39,435 nucleotides of DNA from a virus. The notes beneath the pieces are model-generated. The model was not told the origin of the DNA, did not search any database, and saw only the letters and a program-made list of their open reading frames with translations. Where the stretch lies: UHGV virus genome UHGV-1377012; one strand, written 5' to 3'. Shown in pieces: positions 5,939-33,493 of the stretch. The position numbers were made by a program, and so were the translations under genes. Every line of letters starts with the position of its first letter. Positions within the stretch are counted from its first letter, which is position 1.

Positions 5939-5953
5939 TTACCTTTCGGGTAA
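5939..5953. promoter_or_regulatory. Perfect palindrome TTACC-TTTCG-GGTAA, candidate operator
   Basis: Immediately upstream of a TTGCAA hexamer (5955..5960) and of the LexA box; a half-site plus CCACATATGG lie at 5889..5910. Confidence 0.55.
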
Positions 5954-20599: not shown

Positions 20600-20892
20600 T
20601 CCTGTTCACTGGCCTCTTTGGCCATCTTCAAATACTGTTCAGGGCAATGCGCCATAACGCGCTGAAACAGTTCCAGCGCCAGATTGCGTTGCCCCTCATT
20701 AAATGCCATTGCCATAGCGTCCATCGGTGAGATAGCGGAAAACACACGGCCTTTCTCTAGCACCGACCAGACAACGCGACGCCCCTGTTCACTGCTCATG
20801 ACAAAGCGAATGTCATCAATTTCACGCTGTGCCATGTCACGTTGCTTACGGGCGTTTTCTTCTTTCAGTTGATCGTCTTCGTAATCTGTCAT
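20596..20892 (-). CDS. Hypothetical head-assembly protein
   Basis: 98 aa acidic ORF overlapping portal and scaffold genes by 4 nt each. Confidence 0.45.
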   Translation of the reverse strand: MTDYEDDQLKEENARKQRDMAQREIDDIRFVMSSEQGRRVVWSVLEKGRVFSAISPMDAMAMAFNEGQRNLALELFQRVMAHCPEQYLKMAKEASEQE

Positions 20893-22568
20893 TGTGATTG
20901 CCCACCCTGACCACTAACTGCATTCGCCATAGCTGACAAAACACTCGGATCCGAAGTTTTAGCTTCGCTTAGCGTCTTGGCACCCTGTGCCGCCGCCATC
21001 CCCATCGCCATCATTTGTTGCTGCTGTTGCTGCTGTGCCCGTTGCTGGCGAGCCTGCTCAACCTGTTCCTGCGGAACAATAACGGTTGGAGACACTCCGG
21101 ACATATCAGCGAATGCATCGATCGCCTGATCAACGTTGAGTTTGTCGAGAGCTTCTGGTTTCGCTTGCGCAAGTTGACCAATGAAGTTAACCGTGGACGC
21201 CAGACTGGACAGGCCGATAGACTTCTGCGCCTGAGCCATGACGGAAATGTATTCGACCTTCAGGGGCATGCCTTCCATCGCGTCAGGCGGTGGCGGCAGC
21301 ATGTTTTTACGCACCATCATCGAGAAAGCGCGGTCAATGAGAGGATTAAGACATTCGTCGTTCAGACGCTCCAGAACCGGCCCCAACATCAGAAGTTTTT
21401 CTTCTTTCATTTCGATCACCGCTTCAACAGGCATCGAGCGGGTATTGATGTTCTGCAACATCATGAACAGATCGACAAAGTAGGCGCTGTTAATGATTTG
21501 ACGAGTGTCCTGAATGTCTGCCACCAAATCTGCTGTACTGGGGTTAACCAGATAAGCAGGCCTGAAGCCATCCTGACCAGTAATCTGATCGATATACGTG
21601 ATGTCGCCAGGAAGAAGGGAGGCGCGCTGATTCTTGAGGGAAGTCGGAGCAACCATCGGCGGATTGGTGGCTTTATCAATCAACTGCGACTTGCGCTTCT
21701 GGAGAAGCTGCAATGCCTTAACAGGTCCAAGCGCCAGCATGCCCGGGCATGATGATCCATAAACATCTTCACCGTTAACTTCCCAGCGCGGAGCCATAAT
21801 TGGAAACTCATCGAATCCGGACTCACGCAACAACTTGTCGTTATCGCCACCAACCTCGTAATAAACCGATTTGAATGGCTTGTTCTTGCTATCCAGCTTC
21901 GATGTATCGCGGTCAATGTTCGGGTAAACCGAATGCATCACGTCAATCCACTTCTCGTAGGTGCCGCTTTCCCACATGCTTTTTACGGATTCGCTGACGT
22001 TATTTAGCCCGAACTCCTGAACAAGCTGACGAACAGTCATAGAGAACTTGCGAAAACAGGTGTCAACACTGCCACGAGGTGAGTTAGCCAGGTAGTAACT
22101 GCCTATCGGGAATGGCATTGTGCGAATGATGTCCTCATCATCCTCCAGTACCGCCATTGCACCGGTGCTGTATGTGCCGAGGCTTCCGTATAACTGCGGC
22201 AGCGACTGGTAGAGATTCGACTTATTGAACATATCGTTCATGCGGTTCTGCACCGCCTCAAGCCACAACTTAACAGGGCCATAATCCATCATTTCAGGAT
22301 CTGGCGTAGCCAGGCGAAACCACGGACGCGCGGGGCTTGTGATGCCTGACATCATGCCGCTGGCGAGAGTGCGCGCCGCCATAGTCCCGGTCGAATCAAT
22401 AATGCGTGTATTGCGTCGATCGTTACGGTTGACCTCAGAAGTCAGAAAGCGGGAACCACGCGGGTTGATGTAATCACTCAACTCGCGCCAGTGCGGCTCG
22501 AACGACTGACGCTCGCTTTCAAGTTGTGCGAACTGTTTGTTCAATCGCTCTTTAGTTGTTTCCGCCAT
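20889..22568 (-). CDS. Portal (head-to-tail connector) protein, T7 gp8-like
   Basis: 559 aa; C-terminal Gln/Ala/Met-rich tail (QQRAQQQQQQQMMAMGMAAAQG) resembles the T7 connector C-terminus; position between terminase and scaffold. Confidence 0.8.
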   Translation of the reverse strand: MAETTKERLNKQFAQLESERQSFEPHWRELSDYINPRGSRFLTSEVNRNDRRNTRIIDSTGTMAARTLASGMMSGITSPARPWFRLATPDPEMMDYGPVKLWLEAVQNRMNDMFNKSNLYQSLPQLYGSLGTYSTGAMAVLEDDEDIIRTMPFPIGSYYLANSPRGSVDTCFRKFSMTVRQLVQEFGLNNVSESVKSMWESGTYEKWIDVMHSVYPNIDRDTSKLDSKNKPFKSVYYEVGGDNDKLLRESGFDEFPIMAPRWEVNGEDVYGSSCPGMLALGPVKALQLLQKRKSQLIDKATNPPMVAPTSLKNQRASLLPGDITYIDQITGQDGFRPAYLVNPSTADLVADIQDTRQIINSAYFVDLFMMLQNINTRSMPVEAVIEMKEEKLLMLGPVLERLNDECLNPLIDRAFSMMVRKNMLPPPPDAMEGMPLKVEYISVMAQAQKSIGLSSLASTVNFIGQLAQAKPEALDKLNVDQAIDAFADMSGVSPTVIVPQEQVEQARQQRAQQQQQQQMMAMGMAAAQGAKTLSEAKTSDPSVLSAMANAVSGQGGQSQ

Positions 22569-22582
22569 TTCAATGACTCCGG

Positions 22583-22789
22583 TTACTGACCAAGTAGCGT
22601 TTTACCGCTGGTATTAGCGGTTGATGTGTCGCCCTGAGAACCGGTAAGCAGCGTAGAACTACGACCAGCAGCAGCGCGACGGCGACGAGTTTCTTCGTCG
22701 CGGGCATCAACAACGGCGGCATCCTGCTCCTGTGGTGCTGCCTGAACTTCTGGTGTTGCAGGCACTGATGGTGAGCTACCCATGCACAT
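22583..22789 (-). CDS. Small hypothetical protein upstream of portal
   Basis: 68 aa ATG-initiated ORF; preferred over the overlapping TTG-initiated ORF 22570..22809; low-complexity sequence. Confidence 0.3.
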   Translation of the reverse strand: MCMGSSPSVPATPEVQAAPQEQDAAVVDARDEETRRRRAAAGRSSTLLTGSQGDTSTANTSGKTLLGQ

Positions 22790-22857
22790 ATCAATGACTC
22801 CGTACGCAATTAAATTATTACCAATTTAACCACATATGATTTATTTATCGTAGGTGG

Positions 22858-22894
22858 TTGACATTTAACGCACGAATTATTACCTTTCAGGTAA
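22858..22894 (+). promoter_or_regulatory. Promoter-like TTGACA followed 16 bp later by perfect palindrome TTACC-TTTCA-GGTAA
   Basis: TTGACA at 22858..22863, palindrome at 22880..22894; CCACATATG at 22830..22838; faces the tRNA-Arg gene. Confidence 0.5.
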
Positions 22895-23217
22895 CCAAAA
22901 AGTTCATTCCGGTTACTAACCTGACTGGCTTGTCGTTAAATTGAACAGGTGGAGTGAGCTTTTATTTTGAGCAGTACGGCGTATGGCACATGCGTCGTTA
23001 GCGGTCTGGTGACGTTAAAGGGGTTACCTTTTCCCCTAGCTCAGGCAACAAACCAGGTAGCCGGAATGTGCAAGCCCCGTTCATATCGTCGGACCGAGGA
23101 CTCACCATCCTGGCGATTCGGTGTGACGCCTCGGAAGAGACGAGGGTACAACGATGAGAGCATTTATGGAGCCGCGACAAAGTGTGGCGCCTTAACAGGC
23201 TAAGTGCTCTCAGCGTT

Positions 23218-23294
23218 GTGGCATTAGCTCAGCTGGACAGAGCAACCGCCTTCTAAGCGGTTGGTCGCAGGTTCGAATCCTGCATGCCACGCCA
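23218..23294 (+). tRNA. tRNA-Arg (anticodon TCT, reads AGA)
   Basis: 77-nt cloverleaf: acceptor GTGGCAT/ATGCCAC, D-stem GCTC/GAGC, anticodon stem ACCGC/GCGGT with loop CTTCTAA, T-arm GCAGG-TTCGAAT-CCTGC, discriminator G and encoded CCA. Confidence 0.9.
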
Positions 23295-23337
23295 GAATCA
23301 CGCCTAAGGACCGTGATGCCAGAAGTTCCAGGGGCTT

Positions 23338-23379
23338 GGCGGTGATGGTTTCCCTTGAAGGACTATCACCGCCCTTTTT
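23338..23379 (+). terminator. Hairpin GGCGGTGAT...ATCACCGCC followed by CTTTTT
   Basis: 9-bp stem with a large loop and a T5 run, 44 bp downstream of the tRNA. Confidence 0.45.
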
Positions 23380-23457
23380 ACAGCAGGACGCCATTGCGAT
23401 GACTTCATGCTGTAAACCAGTACAGCCACGGAAGGCATAACTCATTGCTTCCAGTTC

Positions 23458-23481
23458 GCCCACTTCAGTGGGCTTTTTTTT
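23458..23481 (+). terminator. Rho-independent terminator GCCCAC-TTCA-GTGGGC followed by T8
   Basis: 6-bp GC stem, tetraloop and eight T's. Confidence 0.7.
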
Positions 23482-23495
23482 CTAGTGACTACTGA

Positions 23496-23510
23496 TTACC
23501 TTATGGGTAA
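23496..23510. promoter_or_regulatory. Perfect palindrome TTACC-TTATG-GGTAA, candidate operator
   Basis: 33 bp upstream of the ATG at 23543, directly after the terminator. Confidence 0.55.
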
Positions 23511-23542
23511 TATACTGCAAACTAATAACACAAGGCCGTGAC

Positions 23543-24433
23543 ATGCTTGACTTCATCCGTGACATTTACTCCTCTTTCCGCCAAGCATCTCTTGAGCGAG
23601 TGAAAAGCCCGTTCCTTGGGGCATTTGTTTTTTCCTGGCTTTGCTTTAATTGGCAGATGTTAGCAATTCTATTTTTTAGTTCTAAGGATATTGAAAAGCG
23701 CCTTGCTATTATTAATGGCTCTTTCGGCATCGTCAGCTTTTTAATTGCGCCAATATGCACTACAGCATTGATAGTTATCCTTTTACCGCAAATTAATAAA
23801 TTGATTACAATAATACAAGATAAACCTAACTCAGACACAATTGAAATGAGCCTTGCATCTAAAATAAAGATCGCCGAACTGCAGCAACTATTAGCAGAAA
23901 ATGAAGCAAGAAAGAAACTTGCTGATAAAAAAGAAGAACGCTTCATTGAAGAGAATATTATTTCAATAAAAAAAGACCATGAAAAAGCAATAGATAACCT
24001 TAAAGACAAAGAAAGTAAAATCTCAAATCTCACGGACACAATAACTGAACTTCAGAGCAAACTGGTTAAAGCTGAGGCCACTCTCAAAGTTGAACAGGAG
24101 TCAAGATCCCAAGTGCAGAATGAATTGATTATTGAAAAAGAGAACAAGCGGAAATTAGAAGACAACATTCTGCACCTTAATTTAAGTTTAAAAAAAAACC
24201 AATCAGAATTGGCCATTGCAAAAGAAGCCTATGATAATACCTTGATGGCTTATAATGAACTTAACACAACATTAAAAAAAGCAGAAAGCTCAATAATAAA
24301 CTTCAATGCTAACTTTCCTTTTTTAACTGACATAAATAACAGCACCCCAAATACATACTTAAAAATAAATAAAAATGCATGGGAGCATTTAGTTAGTTTA
24401 AATTTAAGTCTAAAGGAAAAAATACAAAAATAA
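23543..24433 (+). CDS. AT-rich membrane-anchored coiled-coil protein (cargo gene, function unknown)
   Basis: 296 aa; two N-terminal hydrophobic helices followed by about 200 aa of Lys/Glu/Leu-rich heptad-like sequence; very AT-rich; opposite strand to the flanking terminase and portal genes. Confidence 0.7.
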   Translation: MLDFIRDIYSSFRQASLERVKSPFLGAFVFSWLCFNWQMLAILFFSSKDIEKRLAIINGSFGIVSFLIAPICTTALIVILLPQINKLITIIQDKPNSDTIEMSLASKIKIAELQQLLAENEARKKLADKKEERFIEENIISIKKDHEKAIDNLKDKESKISNLTDTITELQSKLVKAEATLKVEQESRSQVQNELIIEKENKRKLEDNILHLNLSLKKNQSELAIAKEAYDNTLMAYNELNTTLKKAESSIINFNANFPFLTDINNSTPNTYLKINKNAWEHLVSLNLSLKEKIQK

Positions 24434-24456
24434 ATAACCAATCCACTATGGCATAT

Positions 24457-25926
24457 TTACTCATACGGGTCATAATCTATTATAGCCTTACCCTGCAGCT
24501 GGCGCGGATCATTAAGTTTTTTTGTGACCGGAAAAGCAAACGTCAGCAGTAGCGCATCGCCTTTACCCGGCGAACGCCCAAGCCGCTCCTTGATATCTTC
24601 CTTCGGTTCGATAACGATTTTACCGTCCACGCGAACTTTGTACTCTGCCGCCGACAGATCGTCCGCTGTTTCCTGGTCATCCAGCATCCCGCCCAACCTC
24701 AGCCATGTCTTGCATGAGTTGAACATCTCCCCGCGCTTGTTGAGCATCTGAGGGTCAGTTGACGCACCACCAAACGGAACAAGTTGCCATGTACGTCCCC
24801 AGCCATCACCGATTGACTTCAAACCGGTTCCGTAACCGAAGTCGATGAATACCGCGTCAGCCTGATACTGGTCTTCAAAGTCAGCGATGCGCTTCGCCAT
24901 AATCAGATCGTCGGTGGTCTTGTTGCCAGTCCATAGCACCTTACTATGCAACCCCTGCCGCAGGTATATCACCGCGTCATCAACACCTGAATATGCCGGG
25001 TCAACACCGATTATCACCGGTGCATGTGCCACCTGCGCAGCAGTTACCACCCGTTTCATTGCCTCGTCAGTAAGACCGGTAGGGATAAACTGCAATTCAG
25101 ATGCATCAGGGAATATGCCGCGCACACGGATTTTAACGAAGTCGCTGTCTTCCCCGTAGTCATCAACCCATTTCTGCAATTGCTGCTTGTTAGTACCTTC
25201 CACCGTCCGGCTGTCAATCTGCGCAGTTTTCCAGCGGTGTTTATATTTGCGGAAACATTCACGGAAACGTCCGGTATTACGCGTCGGGTTTCCGAACGCC
25301 ACCCAGATAATCTCAGTGTCTTCGTCCGTAAGCGCACCCTCAGCAACTTCCCACACCAGATCCGCAATGTTCGACGCTTCATCGAATACCACGATGATGC
25401 GTTTGCGCTCGTTGTGTAGTCCGGCGAATGCCTCAGTGTTGTGCTCAGACCAGGGGATTGCGTCAGCTCGCCACCGCTTGTCGTGCCCAGGATCATTGCT
25501 GTACATCGCAGTAGCGGTACAGGTAAACCAGTCTTTCGTGATAGCAAGGTTCGACCACTTGATAATTTCCGGCCAGGTCTTCGTTCGTAGCTGGTTGTCG
25601 GTGTTGGCGGTCACCACGACCTTACAATCCTCGCAAGTGGACATGCCCCAGTTGATCAGCATTGAGATGAGTGCTGATTTACCAATACCGTGACCCGAAG
25701 CACGTGCCAGCATAAGCGGCTGATAGCGCGTCTCGGGATTCTGCAGGTGATCACGTATCTCTCGGAACGCATCGGCCTGCCACTGACGTGGGCCGGAAGC
25801 ATGTGCCAGTTCAGTCCCCTCTTCCCCCCACGGGAACGCATAGAGGGCATAGCCAAGCGGATCGTGAGTGAACCCTGCAATATCCTCGATCAACTGCTCT
25901 TCAGGAGATAACGCTGTATCTGTCAC
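24457..25926 (-). CDS. Terminase large subunit
   Basis: 489 aa; Walker A-like GHGIGKS near the N-terminus, acidic nuclease-like C-terminal half; overlaps the small terminase gene by 4 nt. Confidence 0.85.
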   Translation of the reverse strand: MTDTALSPEEQLIEDIAGFTHDPLGYALYAFPWGEEGTELAHASGPRQWQADAFREIRDHLQNPETRYQPLMLARASGHGIGKSALISMLINWGMSTCEDCKVVVTANTDNQLRTKTWPEIIKWSNLAITKDWFTCTATAMYSNDPGHDKRWRADAIPWSEHNTEAFAGLHNERKRIIVVFDEASNIADLVWEVAEGALTDEDTEIIWVAFGNPTRNTGRFRECFRKYKHRWKTAQIDSRTVEGTNKQQLQKWVDDYGEDSDFVKIRVRGIFPDASELQFIPTGLTDEAMKRVVTAAQVAHAPVIIGVDPAYSGVDDAVIYLRQGLHSKVLWTGNKTTDDLIMAKRIADFEDQYQADAVFIDFGYGTGLKSIGDGWGRTWQLVPFGGASTDPQMLNKRGEMFNSCKTWLRLGGMLDDQETADDLSAAEYKVRVDGKIVIEPKEDIKERLGRSPGKGDALLLTFAFPVTKKLNDPRQLQGKAIIDYDPYE

Positions 25927-26519
25927 TGATTACCATCCTGACGTTCTTTCAGTCTCTTCCTGGCTGCTGCTATGCGATCAGCAATTGTCACATTCACATT
26001 AACATCCATGCGTTCTTTGAACGCGTTGACGTCGACGTGCTTACCAATCAGTTCGAGGTTCTTCACCTTGTCAGGCCATTTAATTTTTTTGAGGATTGTC
26101 TCTATCGAATCCTCGTTCATGTTCATGATGGTCGATGACAGATCAAAGCCGCTAAGCGTAGTGCGCCAGATTTTCGGCCACTCGCGGATTGGCTTAAGGC
26201 TCCCATCGTCGTTGAGGATATCAATCACGTCCATCTGGTCGATCTCCACCAGGCGCATGAGAACGTAATCGGCACTGACGCGCATTCGTTTGTTGCGCTC
26301 CTCCATCAACTCGGCAATCCGTTTTTGAATGCGTTCATCGCGCATCATGACACTGGCTTTAACTGCCGCTGTATTTGGGGAGAATCCTGCGTTAATCGCT
26401 GCCTGAGTCTGGTTTTCAGGCGTTTTGATGTATGACTGGCAATAAGCCTCCTGCATTGCTGTTAGTGGCTTAAATTGCGTTGATTTGCGTTTATAGGTTT
26501 TAGGTTCAGCAGGCATCAT
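25923..26519 (-). CDS. Terminase small subunit
   Basis: About 198 aa; start placed at the ATG at 26519 because the track N-terminus (TITTTVTITTVV) is the translation of the GGTAATAG repeat region. Confidence 0.65.
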   Translation of the reverse strand: MMPAEPKTYKRKSTQFKPLTAMQEAYCQSYIKTPENQTQAAINAGFSPNTAAVKASVMMRDERIQKRIAELMEERNKRMRVSADYVLMRLVEIDQMDVIDILNDDGSLKPIREWPKIWRTTLSGFDLSSTIMNMNEDSIETILKKIKWPDKVKNLELIGKHVDVNAFKERMDVNVNVTIADRIAAARKRLKERQDGNQ

Positions 26520-26536
26520 AACCACCGTGGTAATAG

Positions 26537-26637: not shown

Positions 26638-26976
26638 TCACACTATTAATTTCGTTTCATGCCAGCCTTTAGTCACCCAGCATTGTGAGTCACCATTACA
26701 CGGACATGAATTAACTGGAACTCTCTCGCCGCACTTACCGCAACGTTTTCTGCTGATCGATTTTATACGCCCGCGCACGCGTGCATCATCCTGGCGGATC
26801 AGTAACGCTATATACTCACCAAATTCGTAAGGCGCACGCCCGGGGCGACGCGTGGCACAGTTACGCTCCAGCATTTCAATTTCCTGAGCATCAAGCACAA
26901 TTTCCAGCTTACGCACACCAGATGCAGCTTGTCTGGCTCTCTGAGCGGATTTGCGCTCTGCTGCGGATTTAGCCAT
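26638..26976 (-). CDS. Cys-rich (zinc-finger-like) small protein, candidate late regulator
   Basis: C-terminal CGKCGE...CPCNG cluster; start taken as the ATG at 26976, which overlaps the upstream stop by 1 nt; last gene before the packaging operon. Confidence 0.45.
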   Translation of the reverse strand: MAKSAAERKSAQRARQAASGVRKLEIVLDAQEIEMLERNCATRRPGRAPYEFGEYIALLIRQDDARVRGRIKSISRKRCGKCGERVPVNSCPCNGDSQCWVTKGWHETKLIV

Positions 26977-27206
26977 CAACCTTCTCTCCATGCCTGGTTT
27001 CTGGTTTTAAGTCCATTGCGCTTGGCATTTCTCTGAATCCGTTTCAGTTCTTCCCTGGACTGCTCTGGAGTTATTTCTCCTCTCATAACTCGTTCAACAA
27101 GACTCCTTCTAACTTCCATACTGTCAGCGATAAGACCTTGCTCTTCTAGCTTCTCGATATTCACGCGCTTATCAAGGCGAGCATCCCAACTTGAGCGTCT
27201 CATCAT
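26976..27206 (-). CDS. Small basic hypothetical protein
   Basis: 76 aa, Arg/Glu-rich; ATGA overlap with the upstream ORF. Confidence 0.4.
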   Translation of the reverse strand: MMRRSSWDARLDKRVNIEKLEEQGLIADSMEVRRSLVERVMRGEITPEQSREELKRIQRNAKRNGLKTRNQAWREG

Positions 27207-30311: not shown

Positions 30312-30326
30312 TTACCTCTGAGGTAA
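30312..30326. promoter_or_regulatory. Perfect palindrome TTACC-TCTGA-GGTAA, candidate operator
   Basis: 4 bp upstream of the DUF1064 start; followed by an A-tract and CCACATAAG (30334..30342). Confidence 0.55.
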
Positions 30327-32774: not shown

Positions 32775-33359
32775 ATGAAAAGTATCCAGGACGTCCGCAG
32801 GCAAAATCTCAACGACTTGATCGACCGTGAATTCAATGGTGTTCAGACGCGGATGGCAGAAAAACTTGGAACTCAGGCAAATCTGGTAAACCGCTGGGCT
32901 CTTGGCAAGAAGGTTATCGGCGACCAGGTTGCGCGAAAAATTGAAGCTGCCGCCAATAAACCCCGTAACTGGCTTGATATCGATCGCTCGCTTTCTCAGG
33001 AAGGTTTTCAGCCTGTCGGCCCGAGCGATATAGGTCAGCTGGCGGCTCACAACCTGGAACGCTGGATGAGCGAAAGCCGCGACCTTTCAACACAGGGAAA
33101 ACTTCACCGCGCATCCGGCGTCGCCCAGGTGACAATCAGCCGCCTGTTAAACAATGAGGTCAGCGTTTCCATTTCCACCCTGGAGAATGTTGCATCCGCA
33201 TTCGGGCGTCACGGCTATGAATTACTGATTCACCCGCACGACCCTGCGACCATCAACTATGACCGCTCGCGCTACGCATTGTTACCCGAAACCGAGAAAG
33301 CAAAGATCGAAAGTTACATTGAATTTGTCATCAACCAGAACGAAAAAAACAAACAATAA
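32775..33359 (+). CDS. Repressor-like DNA-binding protein with two HTH-like segments and no recognisable S24 autopeptidase domain
   Basis: 194 aa; TRMAEKLGTQANLVNRWALGKK and GVAQVTISRLLNNEVSVSISTLENVASAFG look like HTH motifs; no Ala-Gly/Ser...Lys LexA-type cleavage module seen in the C-terminal region; divergent from the Cro-like gene and followed by a strong terminator. Confidence 0.55.
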   Translation: MKSIQDVRRQNLNDLIDREFNGVQTRMAEKLGTQANLVNRWALGKKVIGDQVARKIEAAANKPRNWLDIDRSLSQEGFQPVGPSDIGQLAAHNLERWMSESRDLSTQGKLHRASGVAQVTISRLLNNEVSVSISTLENVASAFGRHGYELLIHPHDPATINYDRSRYALLPETEKAKIESYIEFVINQNEKNKQ

Positions 33360-33416: not shown

Positions 33417-33493
33417 TTACCTTAAGGGTAATTTTTTTAACTCATATCTATTGACACCAAACCAAATACGCATAATCATTACCTCAACGGTAA
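33417..33493 (+). promoter_or_regulatory. OL-equivalent: two perfect palindromes flanking a TTGACA hexamer
   Basis: TTACC-TTAAG-GGTAA (33417..33431), TTGACA (33451..33456), TTACC-TCAAC-GGTAA (33479..33493), directly upstream of the early-left operon. Confidence 0.55.

Follow-up and report, generated by a model that had tools for sequence, protein, structure and literature searches.

A conserved structured RNA in putatively repressor-controlled transcription units of Uetakevirus, P1-type and lambdoid phages: a candidate antiterminator

The virus genome UHGV-1377012, whose full 39,435 nucleotides (nt) we refer to as the window, is an epsilon15/phiV10-type (Uetakevirus) prophage of Escherichia coli. 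Here, we describe the plus-strand stretch that fills the gap between its large terminase gene (terL) and the small gene gp3, and in particular a conserved structured RNA contained in the ~325 nt between a promoter and a tRNA gene of that stretch, which a preliminary description of the locus had overlooked. The RNA is real, is absent from Rfam and was previously unannotated. Our reading of the locus, which we hold with something short of even confidence, is that it is a conserved early transcription unit under repressor control, in which the RNA would antiterminate in cis and a swappable cargo gene would lie behind the terminators. That the RNA represents a new class of protein-independent processive antiterminator, shared by Uetakevirus phages, P1-type phages and lambdoid phages without an N gene (including Stx2a and Stx2c phages), is a slightly more tentative proposal.

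Fold, conservation and distribution of the RNA

The fold was derived from alignment A3, pair counts and the covariance model (CM) R1. Its parts in the window are as follows.

22976-23145, plus strand: structured RNA core, 155-170 nt, pseudoknotted
22977-84/22990-97, plus strand: helix P1, a local hairpin
23002-08/23054-56+23060-63, plus strand: helix P2, a long stem with a variable apical hairpin
23056-74, plus strand: invariant 19-mer GGTAGCCGGAATGTGCAAG, unpaired in the supported fold
between the 19-mer and helix P4, plus strand: hairpin P3, variable
23097-100/23108-11, plus strand: helix P4, 4 base pairs (bp), loop CUCACCA (YUCACCA across the alignment)
CACC 23103-06 with GGUG 23120-23, plus strand: pseudoknot PK, joining the P4 loop to a downstream strand
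23129-33/23141-45, plus strand: helix P5, loop GAAGAGA

The alignment consists of conserved blocks between hairpins of variable length. The proposed fold pairs 97.9% of cells, compared with 30-43% when the partners are slid, and compensatory changes are found in 13 of the 28 pairs, against 1-5 in the slid controls. None of 500 shuffles reached the covariation score, and the helices and the pseudoknot are upheld over 32 clusters with <90% identity. CM R1 scores the window copy at 140.6 bits (E 9e-40). No Rfam 15 family was matched by the core, either at the gathering threshold or at E<=10; within 22780-23560 the tRNA alone gave a match, and the outcome was the same for two further loci (L012 and L079).

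The default output of RNAalifold contains a long-range pairing, GGCACAU/AUGUGC, which is 97.8% paired and shows no compensatory change; the local helix P1 has three covarying pairs, and a switch of the RNA between these two pairings is possible. A tRNA-like or Y-RNA-like 3' module, considered on account of a T-arm-like GGTTCGATTCC in some variants, found no support from ARAGORN or Rfam. We also rejected a coding leader (a 78-amino-acid (aa) plus-strand open reading frame (ORF) at 22967-23203, and minus-strand ORFs), because the variable regions carry indels of arbitrary length and the helices covary.

A BLAST search with 22895-23217 retrieved Uetakevirus phages, the phages P1, P7, D6, SJ46 and RCS47, Klebsiella and Enterobacter phages, and, among lambdoid phages, mEp460, cdtI, Ayreon, 2H10 and Stx2c and Stx2a converting phages; nearly all of these records have no annotation at the RNA. 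Searching IMG/VR with the core 19-mer gave at least 120 loci with 114 distinct sequences, which form 67 clusters below 95% identity. An independent pattern found 17 species-representative contigs, all of them full-length R1 matches and all from Enterobacterales except for one 1.7-kb contig labelled as a Bacillota metagenome-assembled genome, and the 19-mer is invariant also in 15 genomes picked with the independent pattern. The RNA is now known from phage P1, lambdoid and Uetakevirus backbones and from at least eight enterobacterial genera. Its core is present in 1836 of 5426 complete E. coli genomes, about a third, at 2469 places, 554 of which are plasmid-borne, and none of 25 sampled E. coli RefSeq matches has an annotated feature under it. 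We found no description of the RNA by sequence string or in the literature on put-like RNAs, the P1 ban operon or phiV10/epsilon15; an earlier description, for instance in King et al. 2011, is possible.

Several copies can occur on different prophages of one genome, with three in Phytobacter ursingii (L146, L147 and L148) and up to four places per genome in E. coli. The core of the window copy shares 97% identity with its counterpart in the P1-like phage D6 and 82% with the one in phiV10, within a region (22570-23481) that is overall ~95% phiV10-like. To judge from such comparisons, the core alone appears to have been swapped between unrelated phage backbones.

The transcription unit and its predicted operators

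The setting of the RNA was compared by neighbour clustering of 139 distinct RNA loci. In 71 of them, the gene of a CI repressor (HTH_3 plus Peptidase_S24) lies on the same strand and ends ~145 nt 5' of the RNA, with cII and cro divergent beyond it; the Uetakevirus portal/terL context accounts for 35-41 loci. The same-strand neighbours downstream are early-left genes (DUF2303/YfdQ, YfbR-like, ParB-HTH, gp49_66 and DUF551). The clusters of downstream neighbours contain no N-like gene, nor is one annotated in Stx2a_WGPS2, and the clustering linked no target or partner protein gene to the RNA. In mEp460, the gap between cI and the RNA holds two TTGC-N7-GCAA operators (the OR motif) and the promoter PL; since the OL operators and PL sit in this gap, the PL transcript has the RNA as its first element. 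The RNA is followed by a terminator and a long inverted repeat and then by the first early-left gene, and the layout in Stx2a_WGPS2 is the same. Phage P1 has tRNA-Ile2, the RNA and ban, in this order, within the C1-controlled ban operon.

Around the RNA, the window has the following features.

20889-22568, minus strand: portal gene (PF12236, E 1.8e-187)
22583-22789, minus strand: gp3, a conserved gene of 68 aa (phrog_831)
22857-22886, plus strand: promoter P1, read from the sequence; -35 TTGACA at 22857-62, 17/18-nt spacer, weak -10 TTACCT/TACCTT inside the operator
22879-22895, no strand assigned: putative operator O1, ATTACCTTTCAGGTAAC, motif ATTACC-N5-GGTAAT, covering the -10 of promoter P1
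22898-22963, plus strand: leader hairpin A at the transcript 5' end, arms 22898-22910 and 22951-22963, paired by eye
23148-23219, plus strand: stem B, arms 23148-66 and 23201-19 with a variable apical part (inverted repeat I1, 19 nt, 89% complementary)
23218-23294, plus strand: tRNA-Arg(UCU), from ARAGORN; RF00005 71.7 bits against a gathering threshold of 29; CCA encoded at 23292-94
23338-23381, plus strand: terminator T1, hairpin 23338-23373 with a 14-bp stem, then CTTTTTAC
23458-23481, plus strand: terminator T2, GCCCACTTCAGTGGGC (hairpin 23458-23473), then T8
23485-23513, plus strand: promoter P2, GTGACT, 17 nt, TAATAT, with putative operator O2, TTACCTTATGGGTAA (23496-23510), between -35 and -10
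23543-24433, plus strand: cargo gene, 296 aa, GC 0.33; hydrophobic N-terminal domain (1-140), 160-residue helix, small C-terminal domain
24457-25926, minus strand: terL
~25923-26520, minus strand: terS

The preliminary description had presented this locus as an AT-rich, opposite-strand island with a promoter, a tRNA, terminators and a membrane protein gene, inserted between terL and portal and expressed in the lysogen. Much of it holds. The gene coordinates bear out that plus-strand features split terL from the portal gene, although the minus-strand gp3 also sits in the gap; the tRNA-Arg(UCU) is found by ARAGORN and by the Rfam tRNA model, both terminator hairpins are followed by a T-run, the two palindromes are present (TTACCTTTCAGGTAA at 22880-22894 and TTACCTTATGGGTAA at 23496-23510), and so is the 296-aa ORF. 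The AT-richness applies to 23500-24450 (GC 0.30-0.40) and not to 22900-23400, where a GC of 0.50-0.56 is like that of the rest of the phage. Of the promoter overlapped by the first palindrome, the perfect -35 stands; its -10 is weak, and the consensus scan made no call.

It is the picture of an inserted island that has to be revised. The stretch 22570-23481 has 94-95% identity with phiV10, TL-2011b, ZX5, phiv142-3 and the O157 typing phages 9 and 10, and the match ends ~60 nt before the start codon of the 296-aa ORF, which those phages do not have. In phiV10 and epsilon15, the region has the same order, namely terL, a plus-strand gene, terminators, tRNA-Arg, promoter with repressor site, gp3 and portal, although their GenBank records annotate the tRNA in some cases only and the structured RNA never. 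The half consisting of promoter, RNA, tRNA and terminators (22810-23481) is found across the genus, at 95% identity in phiV10-type phages; judged by these alignments, it is the constant part of the locus and a standing feature of Uetakevirus rather than a random insert. The complete arrangement occurs at 97-98% identity in 31 of the 5426 complete E. coli genomes.

The window contains 10 copies of TTACC-N5-GGTAA (extended form ATTACC-N5-GGTAAT), where 0.12 would be expected; they lie at 5939, 22880, 23496, 26537, 28595, 30312, 30374, 32705, 33417 and 33479. There are copies on both sides of a 194-aa HTH_3 repressor gene (32775-33359), one of them, with degenerate neighbours, between this gene and the divergent leftward genes; a copy stands on either side of the rightward early promoter at 33452, another pair lies at 30312/30374, and one copy is directly upstream of terS. 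Homologous sites in the epsilon15 GenBank record are annotated as repressor binding sites. We infer that the palindromes are operators bound by the prophage repressor. Promoter P1 has the same geometry as the early promoter at 33452, and its site is kept in phiV10, epsilon15 and a Cronobacter prophage. O2 is retained before homologues of the 296-aa protein with just 25-51% identity: a Cronobacter prophage repeats this promoter and operator ahead of a homologue with 51% identity, and in E. coli phage EC.W1-9 the DNA match runs through O2 and a 31%-identical homologue comes next.

Because an operator copy overlaps the -10 or the spacer of each, both island promoters are predicted to be repressed in the lysogen, and they would probably fire at induction or infection. 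A moron expressed in the lysogen would have a promoter outside the control of the prophage repressor and a flanking terminator; here, both promoters carry the operator that also brackets the repressor gene and the early promoters. With mEp460 and phage P1, the window would bring to three the unrelated immunity systems in which the RNA is under the control of the resident repressor. The spread of the motif across the prophage suggests that one repressor may shut many operons directly, as in phage P1, and not through a lambda-like cascade.

The core is flanked by two long stems. Hairpin A is homologous to an epsilon15 stretch annotated as 'RNaseIII mRNA processing' and may be a processing-type leader element. 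Stem B is present in the minimum free energy fold, its 3' arm extends into the first bases of the tRNA, and by eye it is retained with altered sequence in other loci. The tRNA is an argU-like, rare-codon tRNA with a cloverleaf, the anticodon UCU and an encoded CCA. AGA makes up 7.4 per 1000 codons in the ORFs of the window, concentrated in tail, injection, regulatory and replication genes, compared with ~2 per 1000 in E. coli, and the 296-aa ORF has just two AGA codons; given this usage, the tRNA would supply AGA decoding for lytic phage genes rather than for the adjacent ORF, and a lytic role fits. The densest users of the phage tRNA are a pair of short minus-strand ORFs of 117 and 76 aa, immediately 5' of terS at 26638-27206, with 11 AGA in 193 codons. 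Two 'hypothetical protein' calls drawn antisense across the tRNA or the structured RNA, PhiV10p04 in phiV10 (L001, 3654-3905; over the tRNA) and mEp460_037 in mEp460 (L005, 2443-2811), are probably annotation artefacts.

The 3' half of T1 is retained in epsilon15, and in both phiV10 and epsilon15 the Shine-Dalgarno sequence and ATG of the next gene follow directly after T2, without a promoter or operator of their own. Over the RNA loci as a whole, the closest ORF downstream shares the strand of the RNA in 107 of 122 (88%), and strictly defined terminators number 70 downstream of the RNA, 20 upstream and 18 antisense. In 27 of the 40 loci with a strict terminator, the ORF starts 11-24 nt past the start of the T-tract, too close for a promoter to fit in between. 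Of 126 loci, 33 have a tRNA attached on the same strand, and the other 93 have none within 1.5 kb. The attached tRNAs are mostly tRNA-Arg(UCU), downstream of the RNA at varying spacing (28 loci), with tRNA-Ile2(CAU) upstream in P1-like phages.

The cargo slot and the 296-aa protein

The gene behind the terminators in phiV10 and epsilon15 encodes a 123-aa Phage_gp49_66 protein (PF13876) and has no promoter of its own, in contrast to the 296-aa gene of the window with P2 and O2. Among 41 terL-linked loci, the slot holds gp49_66 in 15, distant relatives of the 296-aa protein (25-28% identity) in 4 and at least eight other ORF types in 22. By this count, the ORF stands in a genuine hypervariable slot for a single gene, which answers the comparison with relatives that the preliminary description had proposed; that description's picture of a moron expressed in the lysogen is right in this one respect, the variability of the ORF. 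In the window, gp49_66 has been replaced by an AT-rich cassette bringing P2, O2 and the 296-aa gene. Only 23 bp separate the ORF stop at 24433 from the convergent terL stop, and there is no terminator between ORF and terL; transcripts from P2 should therefore run antisense into the terminase gene. phiV10, unlike the window, has a bidirectional terminator at this junction.

The protein matches phrog_13369 over its full length (residues 2-296 of 296, E 8.8e-143). Its 176 homologues come from Escherichia, Citrobacter, Leclercia, Hafnia, Cronobacter, Klebsiella and Enterobacter, and every one is labelled hypothetical. The N-terminal 140 residues are strongly conserved, with 39 invariant positions, and the rod and the C-terminus vary (alignment A2). 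In the AlphaFold2 model, ill-defined N-terminal helices precede a single continuous helix (residues 98-257, pLDDT >90) and a small C-terminal domain. Lys and Glu make up 28% of the helical segment, so that the Lys/Glu-rich coiled coil noted earlier is confirmed; of the two N-terminal transmembrane helices proposed with it, hydropathy gives one strong hydrophobic segment (~59-84) and a second that is marginal (~24-46). No significant match beyond generic coiled coil was found in Pfam, NCBIfam or PADLOC, or by PDB profile and BFVD fold searches; a Pfam search over 58 homologues and a search with the N-terminal domain by itself likewise gave generic coiled coil or shorter fragments. The best PADLOC models, JetC (E 0.007) and LmuB (E 0.016), match the coiled-coil part only, and ZorA reaches 14 bits against a cut-off of 250.

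A homologue occupies the same slot in a Cronobacter Uetakevirus prophage. Others are oriented opposite to their surroundings: in a lambdoid Enterobacter prophage they are flanked by RusA/DUF968 and DinI, in a Hafnia prophage by MT-A70/xis/int on one side and recombination genes on the other. The gene is a mobile accessory one, and for this phage we predict that it is active in the derepression phase, not in the lysogen. As a small gene in a variable slot, whose product combines an N-terminal hydrophobic anchor with a long helical rod, it resembles phage morons and accessory membrane proteins such as the i-spanin Rz and the T4 Imm/Sp-type exclusion proteins; it differs from them in having no sequence or fold match and in lying outside the lysis cassette. 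Superinfection exclusion or abortive infection would be a conjectural role, proposed in the preliminary description from the architecture.

Antitermination and its rivals

In the mechanism that we propose, promoter P1 would be shut in the lysogen by repressor at O1 and become active upon infection or induction. The transcript would carry, in order, a processing-type hairpin, the pseudoknotted RNA, a second long stem, tRNA-Arg(UCU), two terminators and the one-gene cargo slot. The tRNA would supply AGA decoding to AGA-rich lytic genes. The RNA would load onto polymerase at early promoters and act in cis on its own RNA polymerase, making it resistant to terminators (processive antitermination) and so licensing read-through of those that insulate the tRNA genes and the hypervariable cargo slot; only transcripts from the repressor-controlled promoter would cross the terminators, and the genes behind them would then be expressed. 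In the window, the usual cargo, gp49_66, has given way to the AT-rich cassette with P2 and the membrane-anchored coiled-coil protein. The reasoning is that genes abutting strong terminators, an RNA 250-400 nt upstream with a tRNA in between, and a repressor-controlled promoter together make the layout of processive antitermination. A classical riboswitch was rejected, as it cannot work across an RNA-terminator distance of 250-400 nt.

The closest known parallel is the put RNA of phage HK022, which is ~70 nt long and forms two stem-loops with conserved bulges just 3' of PL; it works without any protein, on terminators that can be kilobases downstream (PMC9378689). The distance from the RNA described here to T1 and T2 would require the same reach. 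Like the put RNAs of HK022 and HK639, the RNA described here is the first structured element of an early transcript, just 3' of a repressor-controlled PL, with terminators and early genes following it, in phages that lack N; this location, in an early-operon leader and before terminators, is seen in mEp460, in the 71 of 139 loci with cI and in Stx2a_WGPS2. It is unlike HK022 put in size and complexity, with 155-170 nt, at least five helices and a pseudoknot; in copy number, since HK022 has putL and putR and a single copy per phage region is seen here; and in its presence in non-lambdoid phages (P1 and Uetakevirus). Membership of the put family was rejected, with CM R1 scoring at most 5 bits at the annotated putL-like RNA of HK639 and at HK022 24.5-31.5 kb. 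The resemblance of the RNA to put is thus one of position, not of family. RNA-mediated, put-type antitermination has been suggested for N-less lambdoid phages with yfdQ/yfdR-type early-left operons, with no element identified (PMC12315714, 2025).

Two short strings call to mind other antitermination sites. The loop of helix P5, GAAGAGA (23134-23140), contains the GAAGA found in the lambda nutL boxB loop, and UGCUCUUU, identical to the start of rrn boxA, is found by eye in the 3' arm of stem B (window 23201-23219) in many loci. Each may be due to chance, or they may reflect a link to Nus factors. Order and spacing differ from those of lambda nut and rrn boxA, the boxA-like string is base-paired, and no N-like protein is linked to the RNA.

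Several observations weigh against antitermination. The cargo of the window has its own promoter, P2, and would not need it. Promoter P1 has a weak -10, owing to which it is absent from the calls of the consensus promoter scan. A strict terminator lies within 900 nt 3' of the RNA in just 49 of 109 loci, and phage P1 has no obvious terminator in the interval between the RNA and ban. epsilon15 has a deletion from the tip of helix P2 to the middle of T1, with loss of the tRNA, yet T2 and the gp49_66 gene stay; in a Cronobacter relative, the core is replaced and T1 and T2 stay. (What is left in epsilon15 (L002, 4028-4089) is the first ~60 nt of the RNA, at 28.9 bits with R1.) By CM R1, the RNA is unrelated to known put RNAs. 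Terminators after an RNA/tRNA unit are equally expected of a self-contained RNA gene, and the long flanking stems suggest excision of a stable RNA, which fits action in trans too.

This last idea leads to the main rival, which we hold to be less likely than antitermination: that the RNA is a stable non-coding RNA acting in trans, freed from the early transcript when RNase III cuts the long stems and RNase P cuts at the tRNA, with terminators that merely end an RNA operon. Its targets, equally conjectural, might be the translation or tRNA machinery, a host defence nuclease or a host regulator. Long stems do lie on both sides of the core, the 5' one at the homologous stretch for which the epsilon15 record gives an RNase III site, and linkage at varying spacing to tRNA-Arg(UCU) in 28 loci and to tRNA-Ile2(CAU) in P1-like phages, where the phage P1 copy sits mid-operon amid tRNA genes and a dicF-like region, would suit such an RNA, as would its invariant unpaired 19-nt segment and the exchange of the core alone between backbones (97% to D6, 82% to phiV10). 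Yet 88% of loci have the RNA in front of genes on its own strand, the neighbour clustering ties no target or partner protein gene to it, and genes begin directly behind the terminators, where they would therefore be silent if the terminators simply ended the unit. That the leader has no function of its own, being a mere tRNA precursor, a processing or stability element or a recombination-prone mosaic joint, we consider very improbable. It does adjoin the 5' side of the tRNA in the window, with stem B overlapping the tRNA 5' end, and mosaic boundaries coincide with the RNA; against this stand the 93 of 126 loci with no tRNA within 1.5 kb, the covariation of several helices and the pseudoknot over 32 clusters of <90% identity, and conservation across three kinds of backbone (phage P1, lambdoid, Uetakevirus) and at least eight enterobacterial genera.

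The reading with which the locus was first described, which takes all 1.65 kb for a moron that entered between terL and portal and is expressed in the lysogen from its own promoter, encoding a membrane coiled-coil exclusion or abortive-infection factor with the tRNA in support, strikes us as improbable. It accords with the opposite-strand, AT-rich ORF (GC 0.33) in a hypervariable slot, with homologues that take up moron-like, opposite-strand positions in unrelated, lambdoid prophages of Enterobacter and Hafnia, and with a conserved N-terminal domain and variable C-terminal rod, as in a sensor/effector split. It is at odds with the genus-wide conservation of the RNA/tRNA/terminator half, which was not inserted, with the immunity-region operator at both promoters, with the retention of O2 before homologues of just 25-51% identity, with the mere two AGA codons of the ORF, and with PADLOC matches that stay at the level of coiled-coil noise (E 0.007-0.016).

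Whatever its role, a common and strongly covarying RNA has been missing from Rfam, and spurious 'hypothetical protein' calls lie over it in several GenBank records. The terminator-insulated one-gene slot is a natural place to search for early accessory genes with functions in anti-defence or exclusion, and the tRNA and cargo are predicted to serve the lytic phase and not lysogenic conversion. To our knowledge, few RNAs reprogram RNA polymerase unaided, HK022 put and Bacillus EAR being examples. If antitermination by this RNA is true, it would be a second, structurally unrelated enterobacterial polymerase-reprogramming RNA, carried by roughly one in three complete E. coli genomes, and it would account for early-left operon expression in N-less lambdoid phages, among them the Shiga-toxin Stx2a and Stx2c converting phages.

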